Counted from the first letter of the stretch, positions 7,139 to 45,634 are shown. The stretch is DNA of 64,000 bases from Planctomycetia bacterium (GCA_030527185.1 JAUNBF010000004.1:30347-94346); one strand, 5' to 3'. Notes: generated by a model not told the origin, from the letters alone. Numbers and translations are program-made.

Positions 7139-7202
7139 AACAAGAATCATGGGTGCGGTGCAAGTCCGTGTTTAATAGATGAAACCTCGAAGGAGAAAAC
7201 AG

Positions 7203-12719: not shown

Positions 12720-13659
12720 TGCTTTCACGTTGGTGGAACTCCTGGTTGTGATTGCTATTATCGGGATGCTGGTGGGGCTACTCCTTCCCGCGGTACAACA
12801 GGCACGGGCGGCTGCGCGTCGGATGCAGTGCGCGAATAAAATGCGTCAATATGGTCTCGCTTTTTTGAACTACGAAACCCAAAATCAGAAATTTCCGTGG
12901 GGGACGCAGCGAGGCGATGGAAAGACCAATCCGCCGGACGGTTCGGGGGGCTGGGTTGCGGGAAGCGGAGCCAAAAATCAAATACGTCGTTCGTTTCTCG
13001 TTTGGATTTGGCCTTATTTGGAACTGAACGCGAACTACCAGGAATTCAACTTCGACTACAATCCCGGCAATTGGCAAAACAGCAACAACATGTCCCTATG
13101 TCAACCCGTGGCGATTTACTTTTGCCCGGACGACCGACCGAATGCACTGTGGTCACCGTCGGATGGAACAAAAAGTAGTTATTCCAAAGGGAATTACGTC
13201 GTCAATTTCGGTGAACTCGACCTTTCCAAAAGCAAGCTGAATCTGAACTGCCAACTGAAGAAAGCCCCTTTCGATATTAACCTTCGACGTACCGCAGGTG
13301 AATTTCGCGACGGACTTTCCAACTGCGTATTTCTGTCGGAAGTGCTGATTTCTCCACTCGATTCCGACTACGATATGCGGGGATTGGTCTTTTATGAAGT
13401 CGATGCGGGGGCTCACTTTATGACCAATCAACAACCCAACTCCGGCTGGGATTACCAGATTTGCCAGGGGGAACCCATTCCCGGTGTCACCTGTTCAGGA
13501 GGTACTCCTTATCGGATTCCTGCCCGAAGCAATCACTCCAATGGGGTGAATGCCGTACGTGGTGACGGTTCCGTATCGTTTGTCAGTAACTCCATTGACC
13601 TCGACGTTTGGAAAAGTCTGGGAACCATCTGTGAGGGAGATATTGTCAGCGAATTTTAG
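12700..13659 (+). CDS. DUF1559 / H-X9-DG protein with prepilin-type N-terminal methylation motif
   Basis: N-terminus [31 protein letters not shown]-terminal [12 protein letters not shown] (H-X9-DG). Confidence 0.9.
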
Positions 13660-16264: not shown

Positions 16265-19200
16265 ATGCAACGGCTTTTTTTCGGAATATGTTGGAGTAGG
16301 GTGTTGACCGTATGGTGTGTGGCAGTTCCTGCCATGGCTATCGTGACAGAGGTTTCCGCCAATGAGGAAAAATCGCAGAATTTTATCCTTCATCGTCGTC
16401 AACTCCCCTTTCCTCAAACCCGGCTGATTCAAGACTGGATGAGACAGGATCGCGGCCAATTGGATGTTTCTACCTGTTTTCAGAGCGAATCGAGTACGGC
16501 AGAAGAAAAAATGATTCGCCGTGGCCTGGCGGAAATTCAAAAACGGGGCGGGGATACGGCTGATTTGGAAAAAGAATTGCGGAGACTGTTGAAAAAGAAC
16601 GTTCCGGGAAACGATCCCGCGTGGCGGGAATGCTACCTGCAAATGGGAACGTTTCGGCGACAGCTTCGCTTGCGGGAAGTGAGAAAATTCTGCTCGGAAT
16701 ATCTTTTTACCAAGCATTGCCAACTTTCCAATCAGCCCTGTTTTGCTTCCACGGCATTTTTGTCCGATTCCGTATACCAGGATAGATTGGGGGACTGGCG
16801 GATGGGTTCGGAACTCTACCATTTAACCATTTCCGATTCCGCGGAAGTTACGATAACTCTGCTTCACGAGGAAAAAAACGGGATTATCCGCGATCCGGCA
16901 GTGTCCTACGATGGAGAAAAAGTCGCTTTTTCCATGCGTCGCAGCGAATTGCAAGACGACTATCACCTTTACGTGATGGACTGGAAAACCCGCCGGATAA
17001 CACCGATTACCTTCGGGCCTGGAGTGGCGAATTTCGAACCTTGCTGGCTTCCAGACGGAGATTTGATTTTCGCTTCTTCGCGGTGTGATCAGTGTGTGCC
17101 ATGCTGGTCGAGCGATGTGATGAATCTCTATCGTTGCGACGCGGAAGGACGTTATTTGCGGCGTTTGACTTACGATCAGGCACATAATCTCTACCCTCAG
17201 CCGATGGCCGACGGTCGGATTCTTTATACCCGTTGGGAGTATAACGACCGCGTTTCAGGGAAAGTCCACAAACTTTTCATCATGAATCCTGATGGGACGG
17301 CTCAGACGGAATATTACGGCAACAATTCCCATGCTCCCCGTTCGATTATCCATGCGCGAGCCATCCCAGGAAGTTCCCGGGTAATGGTAATCGGAGCAGG
17401 GCACCATACCGACCAGAGCGGGAAATTGATGCGGATGGATCGCAATTGGGGGACACAGGAAAATGAGGGATTGGAATACGTCGCTCCTGTCCGATGGTTT
17501 GAACCGGTGAAAGATGACCTGTTTGGTAAAGAGGGGGAACTTTTTCAGTATCCTTTTCCTATCGACGAAGAAAACTATCTCGTTTCGTATTTGCCCGAAG
17601 GTGGTCCGGCACGTTCCTTTTATCCGATTCCGTTTGGAATTTACTGGATGAATTCGGCAGGAGATCGGGAGTTGCTGGTCTATGATCCGACGATTTCTTC
17701 CGGCCAGATCGTCCCTCGAATGCCACGTGAAAAACCACTGCAAAAGGCCGACGGTTACGATTTTTACCAAAATAAGGGTTTCTTTTATGTTCAGGATGTC
17801 TATTATGGCCCCGGCTTGAAAGGAATTCCACGTGGGACGATCAAGAAAATGCGTGTGATTGCCCTTTCTATTCGAGCGATGTCGGCGGGGGTCGATTACA
17901 ATCAGCCCAGTTCCCAAATCCATACACCTGTCTCTATCGGGAACGGAAGCTGGGATGTCAAGCATGTTCTGGGAACAGTCGACATCGAAGAAGATGGTTC
18001 TGCCTACTTCCAGGCTCCTTCGCGAATGCCTCTTTACTTCCAGCTTCTGGACGAAAAGGGACGAATGGTGCAGACCATGCGCAGTTGGACAATGCTCATG
18101 CCAGGAGAAACGTTTGGTTGTATCGGCTGTCATGAGAATAAAAACGATACCTTCCTCAATCATAAACCGATTACGATGGCTTTGAAAAAACCTCCACAGA
18201 CCATTCAGCCCTTTTATGCCGAGGGAGAAATTGCGATACCGGAATTCTATCCGCTTCTCAACGATTCGCAGAAACGGGCAATGAAATACTTGAATGTCAA
18301 TGCCCCCCAGGCCAACGATGTTCCGCAGGGGTTCAGTTACCTCCGAGAAATCCAGCCGATTTGGGATAGGCACTGCATTGCTTGCCATACGGGTGGCAAA
18401 AGGGATGATGGCACGCTTGCCCCCTTCTCACTTTTGGGAGATACACGCAACTATGGTTGGAAAGAGTGTTGGGAAGGGATTGCGTCACGTCCCTGGTCCA
18501 AAGAACACATCTATCCCCAAACAGGCAAAGACAGAAATCCAGGGCGGAATTACGCTGCCTCGTACCTGGAACTGACCCGATATGGTCGACTTCGATCGGA
18601 TGATAAAAAAAACACGTTTGTCCCGGAAAGTCCATGGCTGAACTGGCTGCCAATGGCAATTGCGGAACCACCCATGCTGCCTCCTTATACCTGGGGCGCG
18701 TTTAAGAGCAAACTGATGGAGTATCTGGAGCCAGAACATTACGGTGTCCAGCTTACCGAACGTGAAAAAGGACGGATTGCCTGTTGGATCGACCTCTGCG
18801 TTCCGTACTGTGGTTCCTACATGGAAGCGAACCAATGGGACCAGATTTCTCATGGTTACATCCATTTTTACCAAAATCAACTTCGTCCTGCCTATCTTTT
18901 TCAGGAGGCCAAACGGCTCCATCACGCGGAGGTGGAGTGTGAGCATCTCGAACGTTTTCAACAGCATTGCGAAGAGGGGAAAAACTTCCAACTGGTAGAT
19001 TTTCCAAAAGATACGGTGGGGGGGAAAGAAATGCGGCAAAATTTTGTGCAAGCCTGGGAAAATCTCCCTCAGACCGTGCCGATTTACGGACTGGCAGAGG
19101 GAAGGGACGCACGCGGTGGCTCCAACATTGCGGGAAACCCCATTCGGAACCTGGCACGGAATCCCCATGCCGCGATTTTTTCCCTTCGATCGTATCCTGC

Positions 19201-19597
19201 TATCACCTCCAATTCACACTACCGGTACTTGCACGAATACGCTCCTACCAGGGCCATTGACGGAGAATTTTCTCGTGAAAAATACTGGAAACCTCTGCGA
19301 CGTACCGATTTGTGGCTGAAATTGGAGTTCGGACGGGAAGTGGAGGTAGAACGGATGGTTTTGACACTTCACTTACAACCGGGACAGACGAAAACCTGGC
19401 AAAATGTCGTCCTGGAATTTTCTCATGGTGAGAAACTCCCTCTGAAACTCCTCTGTTCGGAAAAACCTCAGGAATTCACCTTTCCGACAATGCAATGTTC
19501 GTGGATACGATTGGCAGGTTGGCAAGAACCTTTCCCTTTGAGTGAAAATGGCCTGGCCGAGTGGGAAGTTTATGGAAAAGATTTGCCCAAACCATGA
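16265..19597 (+). CDS. Paralogous secreted beta-propeller/di-haem protein with an extra C-terminal discoidin (galactose-binding-like) domain
   Basis: Shares the blocks ILYTRWEYNDR, MRSWTMLMPGE, KLMEYLEP and ACWIDLCVPYCG with the preceding gene. CIGCH and CIACH motifs. The C-terminus (AIDGEFSREKYW..LAEWEVYG) is discoidin-like. Confidence 0.8.
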   Translation: MQRLFFGICWSRVLTVWCVAVPAMAIVTEVSANEEKSQNFILHRRQLPFPQTRLIQDWMRQDRGQLDVSTCFQSESSTAEEKMIRRGLAEIQKRGGDTADLEKELRRLLKKNVPGNDPAWRECYLQMGTFRRQLRLREVRKFCSEYLFTKHCQLSNQPCFASTAFLSDSVYQDRLGDWRMGSELYHLTISDSAEVTITLLHEEKNGIIRDPAVSYDGEKVAFSMRRSELQDDYHLYVMDWKTRRITPITFGPGVANFEPCWLPDGDLIFASSRCDQCVPCWSSDVMNLYRCDAEGRYLRRLTYDQAHNLYPQPMADGRILYTRWEYNDRVSGKVHKLFIMNPDGTAQTEYYGNNSHAPRSIIHARAIPGSSRVMVIGAGHHTDQSGKLMRMDRNWGTQENEGLEYVAPVRWFEPVKDDLFGKEGELFQYPFPIDEENYLVSYLPEGGPARSFYPIPFGIYWMNSAGDRELLVYDPTISSGQIVPRMPREKPLQKADGYDFYQNKGFFYVQDVYYGPGLKGIPRGTIKKMRVIALSIRAMSAGVDYNQPSSQIHTPVSIGNGSWDVKHVLGTVDIEEDGSAYFQAPSRMPLYFQLLDEKGRMVQTMRSWTMLMPGETFGCIGCHENKNDTFLNHKPITMALKKPPQTIQPFYAEGEIAIPEFYPLLNDSQKRAMKYLNVNAPQANDVPQGFSYLREIQPIWDRHCIACHTGGKRDDGTLAPFSLLGDTRNYGWKECWEGIASRPWSKEHIYPQTGKDRNPGRNYAASYLELTRYGRLRSDDKKNTFVPESPWLNWLPMAIAEPPMLPPYTWGAFKSKLMEYLEPEHYGVQLTEREKGRIACWIDLCVPYCGSYMEANQWDQISHGYIHFYQNQLRPAYLFQEAKRLHHAEVECEHLERFQQHCEEGKNFQLVDFPKDTVGGKEMRQNFVQAWENLPQTVPIYGLAEGRDARGGSNIAGNPIRNLARNPHAAIFSLRSYPAITSNSHYRYLHEYAPTRAIDGEFSREKYWKPLRRTDLWLKLEFGREVEVERMVLTLHLQPGQTKTWQNVVLEFSHGEKLPLKLLCSEKPQEFTFPTMQCSWIRLAGWQEPFPLSENGLAEWEVYGKDLPKP

Positions 19598-21923: not shown

Positions 21924-24497
21924 CTATTCTTCCGACAACTCTTTCGTGGGGGTGGGGCCTACAAAGGAATGGAAATTATCCCGTCCCAGTTTCGGCCATT
22001 CTCCGCCCAAATCTGCCGATTCGCACCGCATCCCGACCAGAACATCGTCGTCCAACGCATACGTCAACAGGTTCGGTGCCACAATCGTCCCCGCGGAACG
22101 AACCGCCGCCTCATATTTTACCGCCCACTTCTTGTCACCGCGTGGCGAAAGGGCATAAACCCACCCCGCGTTGTCTCCAAAATAGATCGTGCCATCGTCG
22201 CCAACGACCGGCGTGCTTTCAATCATCTCTTCGGCCTGATACTGCCATCGGATTTTATGGGAAGTGCCATCCACACTCACCAGGTATCCCTGACCGCCCT
22301 GGCGGGTGGAGAGACTTGCTCCCACGTAAATATGGCCGTGCGAATCAATCACCGGTGATCCCAGCAATTGCCCTGGCATGTGTACTGTCCACGCCACTTC
22401 CCCATTGGAATGAAAACCGATCAGTTTTTCTGTCCGGGAAGCGACGACAATGGTTCCCTCTTTCGTGATAGCTGGCGAGGAGTTCAAAAATCCGCCCGCG
22501 TAACCGACTTCACGACCCTGATCCCACAAATTCCGCCCGGAAACATCACCCAGTTGAATGGCAAAAAGATACCCTTCTTCCGAACCGATGTAAAGCGTAT
22601 CTCCCGCAATCACGCCCGACGAGTCGAGTTTGGCACGACATCGGAAATAGGGACGCGAATCCTTACGCCCTTCATTCGAGACGCGAATCAGCCCGCCGTT
22701 GTAGTCGCTGATGATCGTGTTTCCCCACGCATCGACAATCGGAGCCGCGTAACCCAGAGGTTCGCCTACCTGAACCGGCATCCACGACTGTTTGCCACTG
22801 GACGTGACGCAGTGCAAATAACCGTCTGCCGAGTGGAGATGATAGTCCCCATTGGCATCCACCACAATCGGCCCTGGCACGTGCGACTTGATCACATATT
22901 CCCAGGAAACTTCCGGTTCTGGGCGGGAAATATCGAGTGCGTAGAGACTTCCCTGCGACACCAGAATCATCCGCCCCTTGCTGTCCACCACCGGAGCGTT
23001 TCGCATCGGGCGGGCATGGACGGTGAAAGGTGGCTCTTCGGGGAATCCCCAAAAACATCGTTCGGGACGATCAATTTCCGGTCGAATTTCCGGTCGCGGC
23101 TCCGGGGGACGATACCGGGGCCGTGCTTTCGGATCGTTCGCGGAGGCTGGACGCCCTGCCGGAGTTTTCGGGACAGGTTTCCCCATCACATGAATCCCCG
23201 GCTTCTTCAACACCGGTTTTTTCGCAGGTTTTTCCCCTTCTTCCACAGGAGGGGCGGGGAAATTTTGCCGTGGCGGTGCTTTCGGCATGGGACGCTGCTG
23301 CGCCGGAGCAGGGCGGGGCGAAACCGCGGGTCGCGGCTGTGGTACGGATGGACGCAACTGCGGAGGAGCCGAGGGAGGGGCTGACGGGGGAGCCGAAGCT
23401 GATGGCGGCATCGGATTTTTCACCGGAAGAACCGTTTCCTGATTCGTTGCCTCCGTTCCCGTTCCCTGAAAAGACGCAGGGGAAGGAGGCATCGGTACAG
23501 GTGCTGTTGGATAGGAAGGTGGGGTCATCGAAGGTGGCTCAGGTGCCGGCTGTGTTGGCTGTGTTGGCTGCGGCGACATCGGCAGGGTGGGGGAAACAGG
23601 CATGTTCGGCATGGGACTGGGAGTCGAGGGAAAGCCGTTGTACGCATTTCCACCCATGGGATTGCCAGGCATGGAAGGTCCCGAAGGTGCCGACGGCGTA
23701 TTCATCGGGGCGGACGGCATTCCTCCAAAATTCCCCCCCATTCCAGCATTCATTCCTCCAGGCATACTTCCCATCGAACCCGTTCCACCCATATTCCCAG
23801 GCATCCCCGCATTTCCAGGCATGGGGGAAGGCGACATTCCCGCATTACCCATCGGCGTCCGTGGATTCATGGTACCGCCGGGAAAATTGCCCCGAATGGC
23901 TCCACCGGGAATCCCACCGCCAGGAATCCCCCCACCGGGCGTTGTTCCGAAATTGCCGCCGTTGTTTCCGAAACCGCCATTGCCCGGAGGATTTCCCATC
24001 GGTTGTTGCGTGGGGGTGCCAAACGGACTTTGCGGAGGACGAAAACCACCACCTGCCGGATTATTTCCGTACGGAGAGGGATTCCCAAACGGCGTATTGG
24101 GCGGAACGTTGCCATAGGGTGGATTCTGCTGCTGCGGCGAACCAAAATTTTGCTGTTGCGGCTGTTGGGAGCGACCAAAAGAGACATTGGGATTCGTATT
24201 GCCAAAGCCCCCCGAAGGCTGTCCGAAATTCCCCGAAGGCTGTTGCGGAAAACCTTGCTGAGGACGAAAACCGCCCGCATTGCCAAAGCCACCGGACGGT
24301 TGCGAGGGATAGTTGCCACCACCAAAATTGCCCGGAAAACCACCCCCGGAAGGTTGACCATACCCTCCCTGCGAACCGTAATTGTCGGGAAGAGCATGAA
24401 ACAGGCCGATTCCCTGGCTCCCACACTGAGGACAACGGAACGGCTCGGTCGGCTGCTGCAAACAACCACCACATTTGCTACATTGATAGGTTTTCAT
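21924..24497 (-). CDS. Zinc-ribbon protein with a long G/P/N/Q-rich disordered region and C-terminal PQQ-like beta-propeller
   Basis: N-terminus YQCSKCGGCLQQPTEPFRCPQCG. Residues ~40-480 are low complexity (GGFGN, PQQ and MPGN repeats). The C-terminal ~370 aa has repeated G.IY.G/DG.LYAL beta-propeller strands. No signal peptide or TM. Confidence 0.8.
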   Translation of the reverse strand: MKTYQCSKCGGCLQQPTEPFRCPQCGSQGIGLFHALPDNYGSQGGYGQPSGGGFPGNFGGGNYPSQPSGGFGNAGGFRPQQGFPQQPSGNFGQPSGGFGNTNPNVSFGRSQQPQQQNFGSPQQQNPPYGNVPPNTPFGNPSPYGNNPAGGGFRPPQSPFGTPTQQPMGNPPGNGGFGNNGGNFGTTPGGGIPGGGIPGGAIRGNFPGGTMNPRTPMGNAGMSPSPMPGNAGMPGNMGGTGSMGSMPGGMNAGMGGNFGGMPSAPMNTPSAPSGPSMPGNPMGGNAYNGFPSTPSPMPNMPVSPTLPMSPQPTQPTQPAPEPPSMTPPSYPTAPVPMPPSPASFQGTGTEATNQETVLPVKNPMPPSASAPPSAPPSAPPQLRPSVPQPRPAVSPRPAPAQQRPMPKAPPRQNFPAPPVEEGEKPAKKPVLKKPGIHVMGKPVPKTPAGRPASANDPKARPRYRPPEPRPEIRPEIDRPERCFWGFPEEPPFTVHARPMRNAPVVDSKGRMILVSQGSLYALDISRPEPEVSWEYVIKSHVPGPIVVDANGDYHLHSADGYLHCVTSSGKQSWMPVQVGEPLGYAAPIVDAWGNTIISDYNGGLIRVSNEGRKDSRPYFRCRAKLDSSGVIAGDTLYIGSEEGYLFAIQLGDVSGRNLWDQGREVGYAGGFLNSSPAITKEGTIVVASRTEKLIGFHSNGEVAWTVHMPGQLLGSPVIDSHGHIYVGASLSTRQGGQGYLVSVDGTSHKIRWQYQAEEMIESTPVVGDDGTIYFGDNAGWVYALSPRGDKKWAVKYEAAVRSAGTIVAPNLLTYALDDDVLVGMRCESADLGGEWPKLGRDNFHSFVGPTPTKELSEE

Positions 24498-24528: not shown

Positions 24529-25335
24529 TTACTGAACATCAACCAAGGCTTTGGAATAGACCGAACCATTCCCGCGAAGAACCACCCAGCCATGAACCTG
24601 AGTCACTTCCACTCCCCGCGACGTCGAACTATGCCGACTGCTGTCAAATCGCTGTCCCACCCGAACGATTTCCACACTGTTGGGCAACCCCACACTCTCG
24701 CACAACATCTGTGCCCACTGAGCCAGAATCGATTCAAACATCTCGCAATGGTACGGCGCATGAGCATTCCAGCGATAAAATGCCTCCCCCAAATCTTTCA
24801 ACAACAGAACCATCTTTTCTGGTGTCGAAGACTGAAACATCATCAAAAGACCCGCAAAATAACGACTATCCACGTCATTGGCCAGTACCCCCTGCAAAAG
24901 TGCCTGGCGTTCGCCTGCAATTTCGGGAACTCCCATCAGAGATTCGCCAAAAATGGCACTTTCCAGCCCGGATACGGACGCTGCCGGAACAGAAGTGGAG
25001 GTCTGGGAAGGTGGCGACGGAACCGACTCTCGGCCATTGCCAACTCGATTCAACTGTTCTTCCAGACGGCTGAATCGTTCCCACAACGTTTCCCCCAGCA
25101 TCTCTCCCAACGCATCCAAACGCTCTATGACTGGCGAAAGTGCCTGTGAAAAAAGACGTGAATCGATAGCCGTTTCCGAACCACCGGAACCGGTCGCTTT
25201 GCTTTTCCGCTCTTCCTGCTGAAGCAGATAGTCGGCAATCTGTTGTTGGGATTGCGTTAAAAGAGCATACAAACCGCCCAGCGAAACCGAATCCGACACG
25301 GCGTTTTCTTCCAACTTTTTCCATGAAAAGGACAT
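24529..25335 (-). CDS. GrpE-like protein (candidate nucleotide-exchange factor)
   Basis: The N-half is coiled-coil-like (IERLDALGEMLGETLWERFSRLEEQLNRV). The C-terminus VRVGQRFDSSRHSSTSRGVEVTQVHGWVVLRGNGSVYSKALVDV parallels the GrpE beta-domain pattern G..FDP..H......V..V...GY...g.v.R.A.V.V. SD GGGAG lies before ATG 25335. Confidence 0.55.
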   Translation of the reverse strand: MSFSWKKLEENAVSDSVSLGGLYALLTQSQQQIADYLLQQEERKSKATGSGGSETAIDSRLFSQALSPVIERLDALGEMLGETLWERFSRLEEQLNRVGNGRESVPSPPSQTSTSVPAASVSGLESAIFGESLMGVPEIAGERQALLQGVLANDVDSRYFAGLLMMFQSSTPEKMVLLLKDLGEAFYRWNAHAPYHCEMFESILAQWAQMLCESVGLPNSVEIVRVGQRFDSSRHSSTSRGVEVTQVHGWVVLRGNGSVYSKALVDVQ

Positions 25336-25634
25336 CTTTTTCTCCCTGTTTTTCTGATTTTGTTGTTCGGATACAAAAGCCCCTGCCTCCGGGAAGGGTG
25401 AAATGAACGCATGAAGCTCGAATAAGGATCAATTTAACGAGGCTCTGGAGCATTTCTAAAAAACATTCTCCCTATTTGGTTATCCATATTGAAAATGGTT
25501 ATATCCCTACCCTATAAAATTTCCATGTCCAATCCCAGGTTCAAATATCCGCCGAGAAAAAAGTAGGAATGGAAATATCTCCATCTTCTGCGGAAACTCT
25601 CCTACGCTGTCAAAATATCAAATGTGGTATGAAC

Positions 25635-25660
25635 ATCAATAATTATCAATTATCAATTAA
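25635..25660 (-). repeat. (TAATTGA)n heptamer repeat 9 nt after the stop of the Hsp70-fold gene
   Basis: The sense strand reads TAG AGCTTTGCT TAATTGA TAATTGA TAATTAT TGATG. Confidence 0.85.
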
Positions 25661-25668
25661 GCAAAGCT

Positions 25669-28485
25669 CTAACCCAACTCAATATTATCCAAACCACCGG
25701 TGTCGAGATAATAACGTTCATCCGCCAGCGTCCGCCAGGTAAAGAAGACGTTTTCTCCCAATACCGCGTCCTGACCTGCCACGATTCCACTGACCGATTC
25801 CACTTCCAGCCCCTCTTCCTGATTTTCGATTGCCTTGTGACGCTTGATTTTGATGGAAACCTGCGTCCGACCAATCCGATCGCCAACGTCCATCTTGATA
25901 ACATAAATCGGCGTGGCCTGGGCTGTTTCCACATCGCTCATCTTGCGACCGATAATCACACGCTGGGAACTGGTCGTGAATTCCGTGATTTCTTCCCGCG
26001 AGCCTTCTTCCGCCGGAGAGAACAAAATCCGCTCCTTCCGAATGCCGCTCGTCGAGTCGCTCATCACGCCCCAGTAATACGTATTCTCTTCCGATTTTCC
26101 CGTCATTTCAAACTTGAACTGTGGCAACATTCCATGCGCTGCCATGAATCCAATCGCCGCACCGACCACCACCGGACTTTTCGGATCGATAATCACACCA
26201 GGAGACATCCCCTTTTCATCCTGATAGGGATACCAGTTTCCCGCGTAGTGGTGGAACATCGGAACAATCCGGGACGGCGAAAGCGGAAGGTACATCCGAA
26301 CCAACTTCTGGATATAACTCAATTTGGAAGGTTGCCCTGCCAGCAAAACGACATCGACTTCATATTCCATACAGCGTTTGCAGAAATCGAACAGCAACTC
26401 GTCGAAAACCTCGTGAACCACCCCCTCAAACTCTGCCTGATGGACATACAGTTCCATATCCTGTTGAAGATTGTAGTAGCCGGGACCACGAAGTTTGTCG
26501 AATGCCTGCTGAAGGGATTCCAGAACCGCCGGATCGATCAGTTCCGGGTCCATGTGATTGATCGGTTCCGTCGTGATTCCCTCCGTCGCCAGCGAAAGAT
26601 AGTGTTGCGTCAACGGAATCAAAAGACGGTTCATCCACATCACTCGCTGGTTCCGAAATTCCCGGTTGCGCGGAACTTCCGGCCCAAAAAGAAGAAGGAC
26701 GTCCTCTTCCTCCATGGCAATGGCATCCCCAAACGCTGGCACAATAATCCGTTCCAACAAACGTTTGGCCAGTTGGTCGCCTGCCAGGGCAATGCCGTCC
26801 TGATGGAGCACTTTGCCACGAACATAGTCGTCAATCTTCGACTCGAAATTGTACTTCGCAATCATCAGGTCGGACGTACCTCCGCCAATATCAATACAGG
26901 CAATGCGGACTTCGTGCTGTTTGTCGCCAAATTCCTCCACTTTATTGGCCGTCGAGCCGCGAACCGCTCCCATCCGACGGCGTGACGCGGGCGAACCCAA
27001 CATCGGAGCGGTATCCACTTTCGGCTCCTCCACTTCCGGCTTGCGACGTTCCTGGTGCAGTGACTCAAACCAAATTCGCGGGTCTTGCCCCAAAAGCCGC
27101 AATTCACTCCAGATGTACGTCAGGTGAACCGCACTCGCCTCGTCAATCGAAAGATTCAACAACGGTTTGACATGCTGGTATTTCCCCAGCGTCAGATTAA
27201 AAATCTCGATCGCCTTTTGGACTTGAGCCTGCAACCGTTCCCGCTCTTCAGGAATCATGCCGCTAGGATACGTCAATGTCAATGTGCGGATTTCCCGCGC
27301 ACGACCAGCATCTCCCGATTGCGTGCGGTACTGAATCGAATTCAGGTACGTGTAAGCCTGCGTCAGAAGTTCGTAAATCGCGGCTGTCATCAGGACTCGC
27401 GGAGCATGTCGCGGTTTCAACGGCATTTCCGGCGCAAAATCGGTCGGTTTCACGCCACTTTCCCGCAGCAGAAAATCGTTGTCGTCCTCATGAATGTATT
27501 TCAACAAAGCTCCGTGCAGCGTCGAACAATACGTCCGCGTTCCCGCGCGGTCATGGGGATCGGCCATGTGCCAGTTGGCGCCTTCCAACCAACTCGAATC
27601 GTCCGCCCACAAATAACGTTTCGGAGAACTAACCCCGGTACGAATATCGTCTGATGTGGCAATCACCTGCAACACATCGTCCGCTTCCTTACCCATACGG
27701 ACTTGCGACAAATCCTCAAACATCGGCGGACGAACCGTCACTTCCACTTTGTTCATCCGCGACTTGCTGCCGCTCCCCCAACTGCTGAACCAACCCTTTT
27801 TCTCGCCCCCCTCATCCACCTGATGATACTCAATTTTCTTCATCGGCATGGGAGAAAGGTACGGCGTGTTGCACCAGTGCGTCTTGGAGGAAAACCAGCG
27901 TGCCGACGGATTCCGAACCGGCTCACCATCGTCGTTCCACGAATCCAGATGATAACGATTCGTCAACTCAAACGGCAACATCTGGGGTGTCTGGGAAATC
28001 TCGCCCGCCACTTCCAGCAACAACGCTCCCGTTCGGCTGTTCCCAAAATCGACCACCATGTGAACATGCTTCGCGTCCCCTGCCGTGGCGGCTGCCGGGC
28101 GAATGCAAATTTCAATCTGCCCCACGCCACGCAAGGGTTGGCCGTTGAGGTCGTGGATATTCTCCAGAACCAACTGGAAATCCCCTGTCAGGGCGTTCGC
28201 GTCGCAAAAATAGCCGACTTCCGGGTCGCCGCACGTCGTGTCCACCGCCAAAAATAGTTTGGACGTCGTTCCCTGAATGATTTGCCATTGGATGAAGGGA
28301 TAGTCCATTCCCGTCGGGGTGGCTGGGGCATTTCCACGTTTCTTACCCCCCGTGTCCGCTTCTTCCGCCAGACCACAGTGACATCGCTGCCAACCATTAC
28401 CGACTTGATGAATATTATAACGTGCCCCTCCCTTCAAGGGAACACACACCACCTGAACTCCGGTATTTGCAAAAAGTACGTACAT
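25669..28485 (-). CDS. Hsp70/actin-fold (ASKHA) ATPase, large, SrfB-like by recollection
   Basis: 938 aa. Phosphate-1 motif VVDFGNSRTG (res ~144-153), connect motif SIDEASAVHLTY (res ~446-457), phosphate-2 motif IDIGGGTSDLMI (res ~531-542) and adenosine-like motif VLLAGQPSKLSYIQ. No Hsp70 substrate-binding domain is recognisable. Confidence 0.75.
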   Translation of the reverse strand: MYVLFANTGVQVVCVPLKGGARYNIHQVGNGWQRCHCGLAEEADTGGKKRGNAPATPTGMDYPFIQWQIIQGTTSKLFLAVDTTCGDPEVGYFCDANALTGDFQLVLENIHDLNGQPLRGVGQIEICIRPAAATAGDAKHVHMVVDFGNSRTGALLLEVAGEISQTPQMLPFELTNRYHLDSWNDDGEPVRNPSARWFSSKTHWCNTPYLSPMPMKKIEYHQVDEGGEKKGWFSSWGSGSKSRMNKVEVTVRPPMFEDLSQVRMGKEADDVLQVIATSDDIRTGVSSPKRYLWADDSSWLEGANWHMADPHDRAGTRTYCSTLHGALLKYIHEDDNDFLLRESGVKPTDFAPEMPLKPRHAPRVLMTAAIYELLTQAYTYLNSIQYRTQSGDAGRAREIRTLTLTYPSGMIPEERERLQAQVQKAIEIFNLTLGKYQHVKPLLNLSIDEASAVHLTYIWSELRLLGQDPRIWFESLHQERRKPEVEEPKVDTAPMLGSPASRRRMGAVRGSTANKVEEFGDKQHEVRIACIDIGGGTSDLMIAKYNFESKIDDYVRGKVLHQDGIALAGDQLAKRLLERIIVPAFGDAIAMEEEDVLLLFGPEVPRNREFRNQRVMWMNRLLIPLTQHYLSLATEGITTEPINHMDPELIDPAVLESLQQAFDKLRGPGYYNLQQDMELYVHQAEFEGVVHEVFDELLFDFCKRCMEYEVDVVLLAGQPSKLSYIQKLVRMYLPLSPSRIVPMFHHYAGNWYPYQDEKGMSPGVIIDPKSPVVVGAAIGFMAAHGMLPQFKFEMTGKSEENTYYWGVMSDSTSGIRKERILFSPAEEGSREEITEFTTSSQRVIIGRKMSDVETAQATPIYVIKMDVGDRIGRTQVSIKIKRHKAIENQEEGLEVESVSGIVAGQDAVLGENVFFTWRTLADERYYLDTGGLDNIELG

Positions 28486-28603: not shown

Positions 28604-31198
28604 CTAGTTCTTTTTCATCTGCGCCAAAATACTTTCAAATGGCTCCAGAATCCGAATCAAATCCTCGTTGCCCGGCGGAATCTGGATATGGTCGCCCGCT
28701 CCCAACGCCAGCGCTTCCGGCAAACGTTCACACCAGCGTTTCACAAACGAGGCTGTCAAACCGTAATTGCCATAATACTCCAACGGCTTTTCATGCGGCT
28801 CTTTCTCGTCATCTTCCACGTCCAACTGCGGCGGGGCAATCGCTTCCTGCGTCGGGCCGGGGTTCATGATGTAGTCTTCCATAATCATCTTCACGTATTT
28901 CCGACGCGCATATCGACGTGCCGCCTCATCCCGTGTCTTCAAATTGACCACCGGACTTAAATCATCTATCAGCGTGTCGATACAATGCTGACTCTGCAAG
29001 TAGTCCCGCAGATACCGCACAAACGTGTTCAAATCGTTCCCGTCCAGCCACGGCGCACCATCGTCATGGCCTTTGGTATAATCTTCCCAACGTTTCGGAA
29101 CCTGTTTGGTCGCCCATTCGTGCAGGAACGCCCGCAGATTCTTCGGCAACGGGTCGCCGTGACGTTTGCCCGTGTCCGCGCAGTCCGCCAACTGCCAGTT
29201 TTCCCCTTCAGGAACACTCAACGCTTCCTGGAGAGCATACACCCTGGCATACGCCGCTTCCGGGTCGTCCGTCAACCAGTTCACCACCCGTTCCGCCGCG
29301 CGTACCCGCTTTTCCCGATCCACGTTCGCGTCCGGGTCCACCACCCAATCCCGTGCCAGCAAAAGGAGGCGATCCAGAACCTGATTGATTTCCATCTCCA
29401 ACTGATTCTGCTTGTCCGTGGCCGTTGTCACCGCTCGAATCCCCGCGGAAATCAGCGAAAGTCCACCGTCGCCATCCGTCATGGCGGTACTCCAGCGTTG
29501 TGCCGGATTGACCATGAAATCCTGAACCATTTCAGATTCCATAAACGCCTTTCCCGCACGAACCCACTTTTCAGGATCATCCGCCTGACGCTGTTCCTCA
29601 TCCGTATCCCACGTTCCCGGATACCGGATCGGATAGGTGTTCGTAAACGCTTTGCCGCGACCACCAAAATCGGTCATCACCGGTCCCAGCGTATCGACCA
29701 ACTGCCGCAGTCGTTGCTGGTACAGACCTTTGTCCGCATATTCCTGACGATTCCGAAATTCCTCATCAATTCCCGTCATTCCAATGAACAACGCGGGCAT
29801 ATCATCCTGCACCTTCGACGGCCAATACTTCTCACCATAACGGGCACGACCCCATTTGTCAATATGGTACTTCATTTGCGAAGTCACTTCCAGGTTGCCG
29901 CCACGCGAAAGAAGAATCAACGTCTGGATCTGCAACTCGTCCGTAAATCGTTCAAACAGGTAAGCCACCTTACCACGTTTGACAATCTCCATCTGCTCTT
30001 CCAGTTTGTCCGCGTCCTGCCGTTTTCCCTGTTCCGCTCCCTGACGTCCGGCTCGCATTCCGGGAATGTCCAGAAAGTCCATCTGCTCGATCACTTTTCG
30101 CCAGTCATCGTTCAATCGGTGCGGCAAAACCGGCAAAACCAGTTCCAACATCGCCGCCTGAATCGTTTCCAGGTCTTCCTCACCATTCCCACTTCCCGGA
30201 ACGTACTCCAGAACGTACCAATCCTTGCGCTGCCGCAAATGGAAATCTGCCCAATCGACCCGCGTAAAACATTTGGAGGTCTTCCGCTCGTGTACCTTCG
30301 CACGCTGCGAATCCAGCAGGAAACGAACCCCCGCCCAGTGTACCAGAATCGCTGGCTCGTGCGACGCGGAAAGTTTTTCCAGAAATTTATTGATTCGGAC
30401 AAACAGACCATTCAACGTTGACCAACCACCCCAGAAAATCTGCCCAGCCGCGTGAATGTATCCCTCCTCCGAAAGCGGATAACGACTCAAAAGAGCGTTC
30501 AGAATCGCTTCTTTCGTCGGAAATCCGCGTCGATCCACCGTCCGCATGTACGAATACGCGTCGAGAATGTCCATCCGCCAGCGTCGATCCACGCTCGTGC
30601 CGGGATATTGCCGGGAAACGTCTTCCAACATCTTCTCCAAATGCGGCTCGTCCCACGGAAAGTCCATCCCACGGCATTCCACCTGAAATCCACGTGCCAG
30701 CACACGAATCCACTCCACTCGCGTCAGGGCCTTCACCATCACCGGATATTCCGGCGAAACGCTTTCCGCAATACGGTCTTTCGTGGTAAATCGCGTTACC
30801 AGTGCCGTGGCTTCATTGGAACCACTTTGCGGATTCAGGTCGTTGTTGAAAGACAAGTCCTTATAATATGCCGGTTCGCCATGAGCCTCGTCCCGACCCA
30901 GAGGGCTGAACTGCTCGCTCTGAGCACGCAAAACCTGGCCCATGAAAAGACTTTTTCCCACCTGTGACGGACCATAAACTGCCGCCGCGACAGGAACTTT
31001 TGACGAGGTATAAAGACTGCGTGCCAGACGCCTCAACTGGAGAACCTCAAATTCGTCGCTCTCCGCAATCGGTAATAAATCAAGTTTCCGACGGTCGCTG
31101 TTGTACTCCGCAAGCCAATCACAAATCTCTGTCGCCAGATTCTCCACACGTTCTGCCTGTCGAATGATCTGACGATCCCGTTCATCTGGAAATCCCAT
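28604..31198 (-). CDS. Large P-loop NTPase (GTPase-like), SrfC-like by recollection
   Basis: 864 aa. Walker A AVYGPSQVGKSLF (res 73-85, nt ~30953-30976). DxxG-type motif FLDIPGMRAG. The remainder is helical. No signal peptide or TM. Confidence 0.7.
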   Translation of the reverse strand: MGFPDERDRQIIRQAERVENLATEICDWLAEYNSDRRKLDLLPIAESDEFEVLQLRRLARSLYTSSKVPVAAAVYGPSQVGKSLFMGQVLRAQSEQFSPLGRDEAHGEPAYYKDLSFNNDLNPQSGSNEATALVTRFTTKDRIAESVSPEYPVMVKALTRVEWIRVLARGFQVECRGMDFPWDEPHLEKMLEDVSRQYPGTSVDRRWRMDILDAYSYMRTVDRRGFPTKEAILNALLSRYPLSEEGYIHAAGQIFWGGWSTLNGLFVRINKFLEKLSASHEPAILVHWAGVRFLLDSQRAKVHERKTSKCFTRVDWADFHLRQRKDWYVLEYVPGSGNGEEDLETIQAAMLELVLPVLPHRLNDDWRKVIEQMDFLDIPGMRAGRQGAEQGKRQDADKLEEQMEIVKRGKVAYLFERFTDELQIQTLILLSRGGNLEVTSQMKYHIDKWGRARYGEKYWPSKVQDDMPALFIGMTGIDEEFRNRQEYADKGLYQQRLRQLVDTLGPVMTDFGGRGKAFTNTYPIRYPGTWDTDEEQRQADDPEKWVRAGKAFMESEMVQDFMVNPAQRWSTAMTDGDGGLSLISAGIRAVTTATDKQNQLEMEINQVLDRLLLLARDWVVDPDANVDREKRVRAAERVVNWLTDDPEAAYARVYALQEALSVPEGENWQLADCADTGKRHGDPLPKNLRAFLHEWATKQVPKRWEDYTKGHDDGAPWLDGNDLNTFVRYLRDYLQSQHCIDTLIDDLSPVVNLKTRDEAARRYARRKYVKMIMEDYIMNPGPTQEAIAPPQLDVEDDEKEPHEKPLEYYGNYGLTASFVKRWCERLPEALALGAGDHIQIPPGNEDLIRILEPFESILAQMKKN

Positions 31199-31330
31199 AA
31201 TACTCTCTGCTTCGGTTGGTTAAAATAAAAAAGACTCGATTCCAAAAAGTTTACTCCAGGGGAAATTCTTCCCAAGAGAAGGAAATCCAGACGGTTAAAA
31301 ATTCAACCGCCTGAATTTTTGTTGCTTTTT

Positions 31331-34300: not shown

Positions 34301-37300
34301 TGGCACGAACGGATCCATCGTCTGCGTCCAAAAACGAACCATCCGATCTCCCACGTTGGCCTGAAGCCACTGAATATGCCCCGGTTTGAGCGCTTCGAGT
34401 ACCGGAGCCGTCCAAACGACCGATTCTCCTTCAAAATCAGGCATCCACCGGACATTCGGAGCCGGTTCCTCCACCTCCCCTTTCCGCATCCAGATCGAAT
34501 AGGCCTGTGACGCACCTGTCGGCAAAAGTTTTCCGCCCGGTTCCCGTTTCACAAAAAGCTCCACCTCCGGGTCGGCAGGATTCAGCGTGGGCGTCCCCAC
34601 CGTAATCCGACATTCCGCCGTTTTGCCGCGATATTGGGCACGAAGTGTGAAAACACCGCTCTCTTCCCCCGCCACTTCCGCCGATGGTCGCAAAAGCCCG
34701 GACGGAGCACGCCAGAAGAGCTTCTCCGGCACCTTCCACAAAACTTTTTCCGGCAAAACTTCCGTAAACGTTTCCGAACCCTCCAACTGCTCTTCCACCG
34801 CCAAAGAAATCGACTGTCCCGGTGCGAGCGTCACTTCCGAAGGTACGACGCGAAGTGTCTGTGGAGGATTCGTGGCCGTGACGGTCACACGTGCCTGAGC
34901 CGGATTTTTCAAATAAGGCAAAAACGAAGCGGATACATCAAACGGTTCGGAAGCCTGCTTCCCAAACAAAAGAGGACTCTGCCACTGCACCGCGTCCCGA
35001 TTTCCAAAGGAATAGTACACCCCCGGAGACTCCATCGCCACGCTCCACTCGCTCTCCTCCCCCTCCCCGGCATCGGGATTTCGACCTTCCAACATCAGTT
35101 CCAACGGAGCCACTTCCCCAACTGCCACCTGCACATCCGTCGGCTGCCAGTAAAGTCGGGCATTTCGTGGATGAACCACCCGTAAATCGACGCTGGCCGG
35201 ATTTTCCGAAGCAGGGTGTTCCGCAGTCAAGGTGGCTGTGCCTGCCGCGACCGCCTTGTAAGCTCCCCTATTTTCCCCCGCGACCGCCACCACTTCCGCG
35301 TTGCCAGAGGCATATTTTCCCACATTCGGCACCAGTTCCACATCCCCCTGAGCCGTTTTTCCCGTCAAAATCGCCATTCCCGGTTCGCCCGCCACACGCA
35401 GCGACCGATCCACCTCCAACGCCAACATCACCTCCGCTCGTTCCACCGTCGTCAACTCCGCGTGATTCGACTCCGTTCCCAGATAATTCCCCCAGATATT
35501 GACCGGCCCGGCCCCCACATCAAGTGCCATCGCCTTGCCATGGACAAAGTCGAAACCTTCCACTTCGTCGGGCAGGGGATTCGTGTTCCACTGCATTCGG
35601 GTGTACGGAACGAGCGTACTCACACCATCACCATACGTTGCCCAACCGTCAAACGTCTGGCACAGTCCCAACGGCAAAGCCACTTTCCCTCCCGGACGGA
35701 TTTCCAGCCGCATCGGCGCTGGAATCACCTGCACAGACGAGGCTTTTTTCTGTCCCTGGTACGAGAAAACAATCTGTTGCGGGTCGTCCTGTGTCGTCGG
35801 ATTCAGCCCACGAATTCCCATGCGGCGAAAGTCCATCCCGGCGTAACGAACGTTCGGCAACGACTCCGCTCGAACAGCACCGGTATCCAGTGCGTAAAAC
35901 CGCGACGCTCCACATCGGGCAAAAAATTCCGGGCAAATCTCATGATCCACCGCCACGGCTGCCACGGGAGGATACATCATCAGCCCATCCGCTTTCAATG
36001 CTGCCACCGTCACGGGAAGCGTGATTTCCTGCGTCCCATCCGTCACGGTAATTTCCGCCGACCCCGCCTTTTTTCCAATCAGATAACGATTCTTTTCCAC
36101 CCGCACCACATTCGGCTGGCTGCTGGTGACGCTCACCGCCGACTCGTCCCCGCAAATCCACGACAACGGGTATTTCTGATCCACCGCCAGCGTAATCTGA
36201 GCTTCTTTCCCCGCAGGATAGACACGCAATCGCGCGTCGGTTGCCTTCTGTTCAATTGTCAAAACCGTCTCTGCCGTCTGTATCACCGTGGCTGCCGGAG
36301 TGCCGTCGGTCAGTGCGACCTGCAATCGCCCCGTTCCACTCTGCAACGTTCGCAGATGATTCCCGCCGTAGCGTGCCATGGCAGGAGGGTCGATCCCCCA
36401 CTGCAAATGCGACGACCCGGTAAATTCGTACTTTTCCCCCTCCGCCGTCCTGCCGAAAACCTGGAGACCAACCTTTTTCCCCACAGGCAACGTCGCCGTT
36501 CCCAACGCAATTTCCAGCGACGTGATGGCTGCCGTGCCGACACTCACCGTGGCCGACGCGTCCATCCAGCTATCCTGCGGCGTGGCGCGGTAGCGGGCGG
36601 AAATCGTACTTTCCCCCGGCTGCAAACCTTCGACAAAACCTTGGTAAAAATAGACCGTTCCATCATTTTTGGCATTCCAGTCCGCCGCGTTCGACAACTC
36701 ACTGATCCGGCCATCCTCCCATTCCCCCATCAGCCGCACCTGAGCCGTGGAACCATCCGCCAGCGTCAAGTGTTCCGGTTCCAGCCAAATCCGTTGGGGA
36801 TTGACCGCCGCCGCAACCGTCACCGGGACGCTCTTCCGCCGCCAGCCGTGAAAAAAGTGAATCTTCGTCTCCCCTTCGCTGCACGCCAGGGCTGTTCGTG
36901 AATCTTCCTGAAAAAAAGCTATCGTCGGGTCTTCCACCGCCTGAAGCACACGGTCCGTCACATCTTCCGACAGGAAAAAGCCAAAACCGTCCCATCCCGG
37001 CGTGATGACACGGAACGTTGCCGTTGCCCCGACACTCGTTTTCCACGGCCCCGGAACCACTTTCAGCGTCAATTGATTCCACAGAACCCACCCCGCCAAA
37101 AACAACAGAAACAACACCGCCAGAATTCGGCGATTTCTTCGGCGAGCAGCCTCCCGTGCCTTCCGTTTGGCTGTCGGAACTTTCAGACAAATCGGACAAC
37201 GTGCTTTTGCTCCTGGCAGACGGACGTACAACTCGTTACATGCCTCATCGTCACAAATCAACGGCGTGCCGAACTCCTGATGAATCGGATGGTAGCCTGG

Positions 37301-37753: not shown

Positions 37754-38040
37754 GAGTTTTATCCATTAACGATTTTAATAGCTTGTCATAATTCCTGTCC
37801 ATCCTCCTCGAATCTCCTTCCCTGGAGCCAAAAAAGGTGACTTTCGATAGGAAGTCGGGGAATGGACAGAACTCCCTGATGAGTGAAAAAAAGGAATACT
37901 CTTTATAGCTTAACTCTTTACCCCGAAAATTTCAAGAACGTTCCTCCCAATTTTGCCAAAATTTTTGAAAATTTTTGAGACTTCCTCCCCACTCTTCCGC
38001 TTTCTTGCCAAAATTTTCACAACTTCCGCTTTCCGTATGC

Positions 38041-38068
38041 TTGACGTGAGGAAAAAATCACTTAAAAT
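38041..38068 (+). promoter_or_regulatory. Candidate promoter TTGACG-16-TAAAAT for the SDR gene
   Basis: TTGACG 38041-38046 and TAAAAT 38063-38068. ATG at 38153. Confidence 0.4.
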
Positions 38069-38152
38069 AGAACTGGATTCTGTGTTTAAAAACTCCTCAG
38101 AGTTTCTATCCCCCCGATAGAACTCTCTTGAATACGAAAGGGAAAAACTTCC

Positions 38153-38959
38153 ATGAGTGAAAAACGAAAACCTCTGGCTGTCGTCACTGGTGCATCCAGT
38201 GGTCTGGGAATGTGTTTTGCACGTCAATTGGCCGCGGAAGGATACGATTTGCTTCTCGTTGCCCGACGTGGTTTTGTGCTGGAGTCGCTCAAAGAAGAGC
38301 TGGAAAGGCTCTACCCCATTGCCGTCGAAACGTTTGAGGCCGACCTTTCCGAAAAAGAACCTCTGCGTGAATTGGAAAAAAAGATCGAGTCGAGCGAAAA
38401 TCTCCTCTACCTCATCAACAATGCCGGGTTCGGAACGGGAGAAAGCTCTTTTCCCAACGTCGATGTCGAACAGGAAACGCGAATGCTGGCTCTGCACAAT
38501 CTTGCCCCGATGCGGTTGTGTCGGGCGGCGCTGATTCCCATGGCGGTCAATAATATGGGATACATCATCAACGTCGCTTCTGCTGCGGCCTTTCTCGCCT
38601 CTCGTGGGGCTGCCGATTACAGTGCCACGAAAGCGTTCCTCGTCTCTTTTTCTCGTGGGTTGCAGTGTGACTGTATCGACAAAGGGGTTCATGTCCAGGC
38701 TCTTTGCCCAGGATTTGTCCGTACCGGTTTTCATCAGTCCGAAACGATGAAAAATAGCGGTACTGGGGAAAAAGTGCCCCACTGGCTCTGGCTGGAAGCA
38801 CCCTGGGTCGCGCAGAAGTCTTTGCGGCAGGCGCGAAAAAAATATCTTCGACGGGTGGCCTATGTTCCTTCCCTACGATATAAAATAATCGTTGCGTTTC
38901 TTGCTTCCCGATGGTTGTCGCCACTGCGTGTTCTGCTGTCTTGCGGACGTGCCCGATAA
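38153..38959 (+). CDS. Short-chain dehydrogenase/reductase (SDR) family oxidoreductase
   Basis: AVVTGASSGLG cofactor motif, NNAG, and YSATKAF catalytic Y-x3-K. Confidence 0.9.
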   Translation: MSEKRKPLAVVTGASSGLGMCFARQLAAEGYDLLLVARRGFVLESLKEELERLYPIAVETFEADLSEKEPLRELEKKIESSENLLYLINNAGFGTGESSFPNVDVEQETRMLALHNLAPMRLCRAALIPMAVNNMGYIINVASAAAFLASRGAADYSATKAFLVSFSRGLQCDCIDKGVHVQALCPGFVRTGFHQSETMKNSGTGEKVPHWLWLEAPWVAQKSLRQARKKYLRRVAYVPSLRYKIIVAFLASRWLSPLRVLLSCGRAR

Positions 38960-40202: not shown

Positions 40203-40224
40203 CGTTTCGTCCCCGACAAATCGT

Positions 40225-45548: not shown

Positions 45549-45597
45549 GCTATTTCCTTTCGCAAAGAGTTGTGAATTTGTTTCTAATGAACCATAG

Positions 45598-45625: not shown

Positions 45626-45634
45626 GAAAATACC

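Follow-up and report, generated by a model that had tools for sequence, protein, structure and literature searches.

The 64,000-nt stretch of DNA from a Planctomycetia bacterium (GCA_030527185.1, JAUNBF010000004.1:30347-94346; hereafter the window) encodes a 938-aa Hsp70-like ATPase and, as the next gene, a 268-aa protein resembling the exchange factor GrpE. The ATPase belongs to the SrfB family (PF07520) and stands beside a SrfC homologue (PF10139). Both form part of a five-gene chromosomal cluster running from 37753 to 21924, all on the (-) strand, in the order immunoglobulin (Ig)-repeat giant protein, SrfC-like P-loop nucleoside triphosphatase (NTPase), SrfB, GrpE-like protein and Zn-ribbon/beta-propeller protein (Table 1). 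We consider it fairly probable that this cluster represents a planctomycete version of SrfB/SrfC, i.e., a membrane-associated, nucleotide-driven assembly in which SrfB operates with a GrpE-derived exchange factor.

A preceding interpretation of the nucleotide sequence without database searches (the sequence-only reading) had correctly placed the open reading frames (ORFs) of the 938-aa and 268-aa proteins and had proposed an Hsp70-fold ATPase lacking a substrate-binding domain and paired with its own GrpE. This interpretation is supported, with the GrpE homology being moderate rather than strong and the ATPase carrying a family name already. What it missed is that the ATPase is no orphan but SrfB next to SrfC, and that the unit comprises five genes and extends beyond the two it had described.

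SrfB, a Hsp70-like ATPase with conserved active-site motifs

The 938-aa protein matches the Pfam family "virulence factor SrfB" with 268.2 bits (Pfam cutoff 27.1; E 2e-79), and an identical protein in NCBI is named 'virulence factor SrfB'. The three nucleotide-binding motifs pointed out previously (DFGNSRT, SIDEASAVHLTY and IDIGGGTSD) are present in canonical order and are joined by two motifs that had not been listed, i.e., the adenosine motif and connect-2. Nine residues of these motifs (D146, N149, T152, D448, E449, D532, G536, T537 and D539) do not vary among 25 planctomycete SrfB homologues, and the motifs recur in the SrfB proteins of Cereibacter, Klebsiella and Runella; identity of the window protein to proteobacterial SrfB is only ~24%. 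Since the catalytic-type residues are invariant and the motifs common to several phyla, proteins of the SrfB family probably hydrolyse ATP.

A hidden Markov model (HMM) of the 25 planctomycete SrfBs, compared with DnaK by hhalign, aligned residues 525-781 with DnaK 186-379 (92.0%, P 6.4e-7). Addition of the Cereibacter, Klebsiella and Runella sequences increased the match to the DnaK nucleotide-binding domain (NBD) up to 94.4% (P 9e-8). The aligned stretch comprises phosphate-2 (DxGGGT), a segment similar to 'GGDDFD' of subdomain IIB, the adenosine motif and connect-2, and thus the elements that characterize lobe II in the ASKHA superfamily. As judged from these profile alignments, the resemblance of SrfB lobe II to the DnaK NBD is beyond chance. 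Motifs and alignment together identify SrfB as a cytoplasmic Hsp70-like ATPase whose active site appears intact. Membership in the Hsp70 family proper was not found (no match to PF00012 at E<=0.01), and the N-terminal, insert and C-terminal regions displayed no similarity to the DnaK substrate-binding domain (hhalign, P 0.025-0.85), as had been anticipated. Profiles of SrfB and SrfC found no match among the PDB sequences, and direct phmmer searches with SrfB, SrfC and the 268-aa protein yielded nothing meaningful there.

Phosphate-1 and connect-1 are separated by ~300 residues in SrfB vs ~160 in DnaK. The large insertion postulated here by the sequence-only reading thus holds as an excess but not in its size of ~240 residues, the net surplus of lobe I being nearer to 140; the extent of the insertion is not delimitable, because lobe I fails to align with DnaK. 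A CHCG pair in the N-terminal extension had been singled out as well. As a metal site it was dropped, since its residues are not conserved (C35 in 19, H36 in 3 and C37 in 18 of the 25 homologues). Two other cysteines, C85 and C94, are invariant in the same set.

Genes for SrfB and SrfC are widespread, being present in Proteobacteria, Bacteroidota and Planctomycetota and, in PLSDB alone, on 143 plasmids.

The GrpE-like partner protein

The 268-aa protein has no match in Pfam, NCBIfam or PADLOC. In a library of 1.84 billion proteins it belongs to a discrete family that comprises ~290 clusters when grouped at 50% identity, with 243 clusters matching below 1e-30; its close relatives number 35, and the named ones are all from Planctomycetia. 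The last ~100 residues are strongly conserved across the family. When the family profile was searched against 177,635 PDB sequences, the best match was GrpE of E. coli (1dkg_A, E 0.0019), spanning the N-terminal helix and the LLPVIDSLDRA region, followed by generic coiled coils at E 0.34. HMM-HMM comparison (hhalign) of a 174-member family alignment with 12 authentic GrpEs from annotated records aligned residues 172-267 with E. coli GrpE 92-192, i.e., with two bundle helices and the beta-domain, co-linear over 92 columns (score 33.3, P 5.7e-4); for the C-terminal domain alone P was 3e-4. The reversed template scored 20.8, and none of 150 column shuffles reached 33.3 (maximum 22.9). Accordingly, the co-linearity with the GrpE core that had been noticed by eye in the C-terminal segment exceeds chance. 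The family-invariant residues F230, D231, H235, G249, W250, A263 and V265 fall on the FDPxxH, GY and AxVxV positions of GrpE. The N-terminus is weakly co-linear with that of GrpE (P 0.036), and its helices are predicted at low confidence.

The predicted structure points in the same direction. An AlphaFold2 (AF2) model of residues 118-268, based on a 110-sequence alignment (pLDDT 96.6, pTM 0.90) and superseding a model of the full-length protein, was searched with Foldseek against 350,542 PDB chains, and the first four ranks were all taken by GrpE or GrpEL1: human GrpEL1-mortalin complex 9bls_C (E 0.03), 9blt_C (E 0.043) and 9bls_B (E 0.53), and the E. coli GrpE chain of a DnaK complex (1dkg_B; E 0.045, probability 0.85). 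Three of these four chains originate from GrpE-Hsp70 complexes, and the fifth match is unrelated (E 1.3). For the modelled C-terminal domain, GrpE is thus clearly the best match, with modest statistics, and a GrpE-type fold is predicted.

Based on sequence and model, the 268-aa protein is regarded as a remote, diverged GrpE homologue outside the canonical family, with moderate support (E 0.002-0.05 per single test). The designation "remote GrpE-like" was chosen because the protein falls outside the GrpE family in the strict sense. In one homologue (P0033), a zinc ribbon and a hydrophobic segment replace the N-terminal coiled coil, and the GrpE-like C-terminal domain is kept.

Conservation of the gene pair across genomes

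A scan with one genome per species retrieved 147 relatives of the window SrfB; the best 80 derive from Pirellulales, Thermoguttaceae and related metagenome-assembled genomes, with the exception of one contig binned as Nealsonbacteria. Among the 60 Pirellulales/Thermoguttaceae loci with at least 1.5 kb of sequence downstream of srfB, the next gene on the same strand encodes a member of the 268-aa family in 56, meaning that the co-occurrence proposed as a check of the pairing was indeed observed. In most related loci, srfC is located upstream of srfB and is itself preceded by a gene for a giant protein, and a PQQ-type propeller gene follows the GrpE-like gene. The same order is present in a closed genome of 8.7 Mb. 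A reciprocal look-up starting from a divergent 268-aa homologue again placed it between srfB and the propeller gene.

A clade of ruminant-gut Thermoguttaceae (L014-L017, L066 and L071; SrfB ~68% identical to the window protein) deviates from this arrangement in that srfC-srfB are preceded by another kind of giant ORF (in L014, >2200 aa and upstream of srfC). In L017 and L066, the loci of this clade with downstream sequence, neither the GrpE-like nor the propeller gene is found there. L017 encodes a 2012-aa protein with PATR repeats (autotransporter-passenger-like) ~4 kb downstream.

The srf operons of Cereibacter and of Klebsiella plasmids contain, in this order, genes for SrfA-like protein, SrfB, SrfC, a hypothetical protein, a vWA protein, an ABC ATPase, a permease and a SUMF1 protein. 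On plasmid pSP2_1 of Runella sp. SP2 (L100, 1-19500), srfB-srfC directly follow the BREX genes pglZ and brxL and precede a gene for an S8 peptidase, a defence-island-like context unlike both the proteobacterial and the planctomycete arrangement.

Further products and layout of the cluster

The 864-aa protein encoded upstream of srfB matches PF10139 with E 1.4e-53 and shares 23% identity over 603 aa with SrfC of Klebsiella (E 8e-31). Its residues G76, S78, Q79, G81, K82, S83, D374, D377, P379 and G380 are invariant in planctomycete as well as proteobacterial and Bacteroidota homologues, and GxSQxGKS and D..DxPG are common to the window protein and the SrfCs of Klebsiella, Cereibacter and Runella. 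From this invariant Walker A and D..DxPG, SrfC is classified as a P-loop NTPase whose switch II is GTPase-like. It may also be dynamin-like; as PDB sequence searches gave nothing, the GTPase/dynamin-like assignment is one by motifs.

Transmembrane (TM) segments, called as hydrophobic 19-mers above 1.6, are absent from SrfB, SrfC, the GrpE-like and the propeller protein, and exactly one is present in the giant protein. In the homologues of the latter, the N-terminal ~650 aa are best conserved. Its N-terminus was considered as SrfA-like and rejected: BLASTP against Klebsiella SrfA revealed no similarity, and only the topology is analogous. SrfA is described as crossing the membrane once, with its N-terminal domain in the cytoplasm, and is represented in NCBIfam by model NF040486 (bioRxiv 10.64898/2026.09.18.752743). 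None of the cluster proteins submitted had an NCBIfam match, and neither NCBIfam nor PADLOC provided anything useful for them. Zinc-ribbon-like motifs occur in the cytoplasmic part of the giant protein, at the N-terminus of the propeller protein and in the GrpE-like homologue P0033, which hints at a shared docking element.

Between the giant gene and srfC, a stem-loop with T-rich tail is positioned 13 nt past the stop codon of the former and ~85 nt ahead of the latter. This element could act as an intra-operon terminator or attenuator and may in this way set the expression ratio of giant protein to NTPases. The propeller gene starts 31 nt past the GrpE-like gene.

Table 1 Features of the srfB/GrpE-like cluster in the window
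Feature	Residues or size	Position (nt)	Strand	Basis or remarks
Giant bitopic membrane protein	2140 aa	31331..37753	(-)	translation, hydrophobicity scan, weak Ig-like Pfam matches
Giant protein, N-terminal cytoplasmic region	~209 aa			Zn-ribbon-like CDDEAC...CPIC and basic stretch
Giant protein, TM helix	210-226	37076-37126		only TM segment in the cluster
Giant protein, extracytoplasmic part	~1900 aa			Ig-like (Big_2/HL_N-beta-type) repeats, weak Pfam matches
Stem-loop with T-rich tail	16 bp, perfect-looking	31283..31318	(-)	consensus scan only
SrfC-family protein (PF10139 Virul_Fac)	864 aa	28604..31198	(-)	Pfam, similarity to Klebsiella SrfC
SrfC, Walker A GPSQVGKS	76-83	30950-30973	(-)	
SrfC, GTPase-like D..DIPG	374-380	30059-30079	(-)	
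SrfB-family Hsp70-like (ASKHA) ATPase	938 aa	25669..28485	(-)	Pfam PF07520, hhalign, motif invariance
SrfB, phosphate-1 DFGNSRT	146-152	28030-28050	(-)	
SrfB, connect-1 SIDEASAVHLTY	446-457	27115-27150	(-)	
SrfB, phosphate-2 IDIGGGTSD	531-539	26869-26895	(-)	
SrfB, adenosine motif LLAGQPSKLSYIQ	~714-726	26320-26349	(-)	position given for VLLAGQPSKL
SrfB, connect-2 DPKSPVVVGAAI	767-778	26155-26187	(-)	position given for DPKSPVVVGAA
GrpE-like protein	268 aa	24529..25335	(-)	profile, HMM-HMM, AF2/Foldseek
GrpE-like protein, predicted helices	19-48, 59-79, 82-102			AF2
GrpE-like protein, disordered linker	103-117			prediction
GrpE-like protein, compact C-terminal domain	118-268			AF2
GrpE-like protein, GrpE-like core (two helices, small beta-domain)	172-267	24535-24822	(-)	
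Zn-ribbon/beta-propeller protein	857 aa	21924..24497	(-)	translation, PF13360
Propeller protein, Zn ribbon CSKCGGC...CPQCG	6-26	24420-24482	(-)	
Propeller protein, G/P/Q/N-rich low-complexity linker	~450 aa			translation
Propeller protein, PQQ/BamB-like beta-propeller	~480-840			PF13360, E 1.1e-15

Proposed function and alternative explanations

In the proposed assembly, SrfB retains the catalytic residues of the Hsp70 NBD and carries family-specific N- and C-terminal domains in place of the substrate-binding domain. The GrpE-like protein, probably dimeric via its N-terminal helices, would dock on the nucleotide cleft of SrfB and speed ADP release, so that SrfB may alternate in a controlled way between ATP- and ADP-bound states, in the manner of DnaK and GrpE; this exchange-factor activity is assigned by analogy with DnaK-GrpE. 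SrfC would represent a second, P-loop GTPase-like NTPase. Both NTPases may engage the cytoplasmic N-terminal domain of the giant Ig-repeat protein, a likely membrane platform or client, with the Zn-ribbon/beta-propeller protein as likely adaptor. Overall, this suggests that Srf proteins work as cytoplasmic machines driven through a nucleotide cycle, and not as toxins.

Several observations weigh against this proposal. On the side of SrfB, HMM-HMM comparison gave no alignment of lobe I with DnaK (P 0.078); DFGNSRT and DEAS are present there and invariant. Of the Hsp70 fold originally claimed, lobe II is borne out by alignment, and lobe I is suggested by motifs only. On the side of the partner, the library-wide profile search starting from the 268-aa family did not reach canonical GrpE, none of 31 family members matched Pfam GrpE (PF01025) at E<=10, and a GrpE signature (a PROSITE-style pattern) is absent from all 174 family members, compared with its presence in 9 of 12 authentic GrpEs. 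The hhalign probability for GrpE is only 30-40%, the beta-domain is ~9 residues shorter than that of GrpE, and the core has three additional helices in front of it. The Foldseek matches to GrpE are modest (TM 0.31-0.38, E 0.03-0.5), a low TM being expected from the comparison of the extended helices of GrpE with a compact helical domain, and the full-length AF2 model (pLDDT 73; beta region 65-78) had no GrpE match in Foldseek. At the level of genes, the 333-nt gap between srfB and the GrpE-like gene excludes translational coupling. Four of the 60 loci (L017, L050, L066 and L068) lack the partner and have unrelated metabolic genes downstream of srfB, and hmmsearch with the GrpE-like family profile found no member in the srf loci of Cereibacter, Klebsiella and Runella. 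From these partnerless loci it is evident that SrfB can work without the GrpE-like protein. A tblastn search with the family across all PLSDB plasmids likewise remained negative, as did hhalign comparisons of ten hypothetical neighbours from classical srf operons with GrpE and with the new family. On present sampling, i.e., the srf loci and PLSDB plasmids without family member, the partner is specific to the planctomycete srf variant.

Such deviations could be accommodated if the 268-aa protein were derived from GrpE but had become a dimeric scaffold or adaptor tethering SrfB to the propeller or giant protein instead of acting as exchange factor. The additional helical domain (118-171) and the shortened beta-domain would agree with this, as would the close linkage to the propeller gene at 31 nt compared with 333 nt to srfB, the N-terminal zinc ribbon of P0033 instead of a coiled coil, and the existence of SrfB without such a partner in other phyla. 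We nevertheless regard a pure scaffold as unlikely, since the most conserved residues of the family are precisely those at GrpE signature positions and the partner is an Hsp70-like NBD with intact active site; moreover, we know of no GrpE-fold domain outside Hsp70 nucleotide exchange. Rather improbable, and more so than a scaffold role, is that the resemblance to GrpE reflects chance or convergence and that the 268-aa protein is an unrelated, planctomycete-specific Srf accessory protein. The unmatched Pfam model and absent signature, the Foldseek values (E 0.03-0.05, low TM, root-mean-square deviation ~19 Å), the full-length model without Foldseek match and an hhalign probability below 50% would be in line with coincidence. 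It would, however, have to account for GrpE being ranked first by three approaches (PDB sequence profile, shuffle-controlled HMM-HMM comparison and 3Di search of the pLDDT-96 model), for the coinciding conserved residues of the family and GrpE, and for the adjoining gene encoding the one kind of protein on which GrpE is known to act.

Two further explanations concern the cluster as a whole, and both appear very improbable. A secreted SrfABC-type toxin or virulence factor, like that of Xenorhabdus stockiae, is brought to mind by the SrfB and SrfC family memberships, and co-expressed SrfABC of Xenorhabdus was reported to be cytotoxic (PMC6950479). In the window, however, no SrfA homologue was found and the gene order is giant-C-B; SrfB, SrfC and the GrpE-like protein are devoid of TM segments, and the NTPase active sites are typical of cytoplasmic machines. 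The neighbourhood consists of housekeeping genes (DHDPS, arginine biosynthesis (arg) and NQR). Across an order, SrfB sequences share 56-88% identity, and synteny is kept in both free-living and gut Pirellulales, which argues for a conserved cellular role rather than for a toxin that is secreted or a defence system that evolves rapidly. The latter, i.e., an NTPase-based anti-phage or conflict system, could be envisaged from the Runella pSP2_1 locus with its BREX genes and S8 peptidase, from a weak PADLOC match of SrfB to the candidate PDC-M61B (E 0.009), and from a WYL regulator and a GmrSD gene 1-6 kb beyond the cluster. PADLOC yielded no significant matches for the cluster proteins, though, the GC content of the cluster is like that of its surroundings, and strong sequence conservation with stable synteny across an order is atypical of defence islands.

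Starting from the preferred reading of SrfB with a GrpE-derived exchange factor, one may speculate further. Uptake resembling endocytosis and beta-propeller proteins resembling coat proteins are known from Planctomycetes. Together with a dynamin-like GTPase SrfC, SrfB and its GrpE-like protein could act on the cytoplasmic tail of the giant protein with the propeller protein as adaptor, and would then constitute a non-chaperone machine of Hsp70 and nucleotide exchange factor (NEF) for remodelling of membrane or surface proteins, with 'SrfABC toxins' being misnamed cytoplasmic NTPase machines. We consider this extended scenario a long shot.

Comparison with known systems

The window proteins are bona fide members of the SrfB and SrfC families known from Salmonella, Xenorhabdus and Klebsiella plasmids (PF07520, PF10139, COG4457/COG4458). 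Adjacency to SrfC, the SrfB ATPase motifs and the SrfC Walker A/DxPG motifs are shared with the srf loci of Cereibacter, Klebsiella and Runella. The tripartite system as such is not present: SrfA (kinase-like N-domain, TM segment and lipocalin-like C-domain) is missing, its place being taken by the 2140-aa Ig-repeat protein, which shares with SrfA the single-pass topology with cytoplasmic N-terminal domain but no sequence similarity, and the planctomycete order of giant-C-B differs from A-B-C. Likewise, the window cluster lacks the vWA / Lol-like ABC / SUMF1 cassette found after srfC in proteobacteria, whereas the planctomycete locus adds genes for the GrpE-like and the Zn-ribbon/propeller protein not found in the sampled proteobacterial and Bacteroidota loci or in PLSDB.

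Compared with DnaK-GrpE (1DKG, 9BLS), SrfB has kept phosphate-2, adenosine motif and connect-2 in a lobe II resembling DnaK 186-379, and its partner has a GrpE-like helix pair and small beta-domain with conserved FDxxxH, G-aromatic and AxVxV positions, as well as a long predicted N-terminal helix that shows weak co-linearity to the coiled coil of GrpE. Like grpE and dnaK in many cases, the two genes are neighbours. In contrast to DnaK, SrfB has neither substrate-binding domain nor lid, falls outside PF00012 and possesses a lobe I larger by ~140 residues. The partner differs from GrpE in falling outside PF01025, in the extra three-helix segment and disordered linker, and in a beta-domain shorter by 9 residues. 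A J-domain was not detected by Pfam in any cluster protein, in accordance with the sequence-only reading, and the genomic context is a membrane-protein/NTPase cluster rather than a heat-shock regulon.

Envelope signalling cassettes of the TagQRST-PpkA type adjoin proteobacterial srfBC (PMC3608642; bioRxiv 10.64898/2026.09.18.752743). Common to both is the association of Srf NTPases with envelope-spanning or periplasmic partners, a resemblance in gene context only. In the closed planctomycete genome L001, a Ser/Thr kinase is encoded at a distance of ~4 kb from the cluster. Genes for an ABC transporter, vWA or FGE-type proteins are lacking in the window cluster.

Other features of the window

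Upstream of the giant gene, a 290-aa ORF without family match (37910-38782) is followed by a gene for a transcription regulator of the HTH-WYL-WCX type (39009-40295 (-)), which is ~1.3 kb away from the giant-gene start; its counterpart in L001 is a gene with FHA domain, oriented oppositely. A GmrSD-type restriction endonuclease is encoded at 43815-45548 (-) (PF03235, E 7.8e-39, plus GmrSD_C) and is adjoined by a DEAD_2/Helicase_C_2 helicase gene at 45638-47740. A 2-kb dip in GC content (44001-46000; 42% vs ~50-55% around) contains the GmrSD gene and suggests that this is a horizontally acquired defence gene.

On the other side of the cluster, adjacent paralogues of 850 and 1110 aa (13695-16247 (+) and 16265-19597 (+)) match the 'hydrazine synthase alpha middle domain' (PF18582, E ~1e-32 to 1e-34) and display TolB-like propeller signals; they are preceded by a gene for a DUF1559 / N-methyl prepilin-like protein (12700-13659). 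Three tandem paralogues of GFO/IDH/MocA oxidoreductases, two of them with twin-arginine translocation (TAT) signal peptides, are encoded at 4201-8567 (+), and the next gene codes for an aldose 1-epimerase (8658-9833). Two of the exceptional loci, L017 and L050, have similar GFO/IDH/MocA genes with TAT signal downstream of srfB. The only Rfam match is the bacterial small signal recognition particle RNA (RF00169, 46.8 bits) at 932-1029 (-), and the whole window is without a tRNA gene match.

Significance

SrfB and SrfC represent known families, and annotation names the genes accordingly. In the open-access literature searched, SrfABC is regarded as an operon for a toxin or for virulence, without description of the mechanism, and this literature contains no description of a Hsp70-like fold for SrfB, of a GrpE-like partner or of a biochemical activity for SrfB or SrfC. 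New are the GrpE-like family without Pfam or NCBIfam model, its tight conservation with srfB in Pirellulales, and the five-gene architecture. To our knowledge, this would be the first example of recruitment of an exchange factor of the GrpE type to a relative of Hsp70 that is not a chaperone. The present analysis thus defines an unannotated protein family, and recognition of SrfB as a Hsp70-like ATPase accompanied by a diverged GrpE across an order makes a family of unknown function accessible to direct and cheap biochemical tests. If the proposed relationship is true, the reach of the Hsp70/NEF module would be broader.

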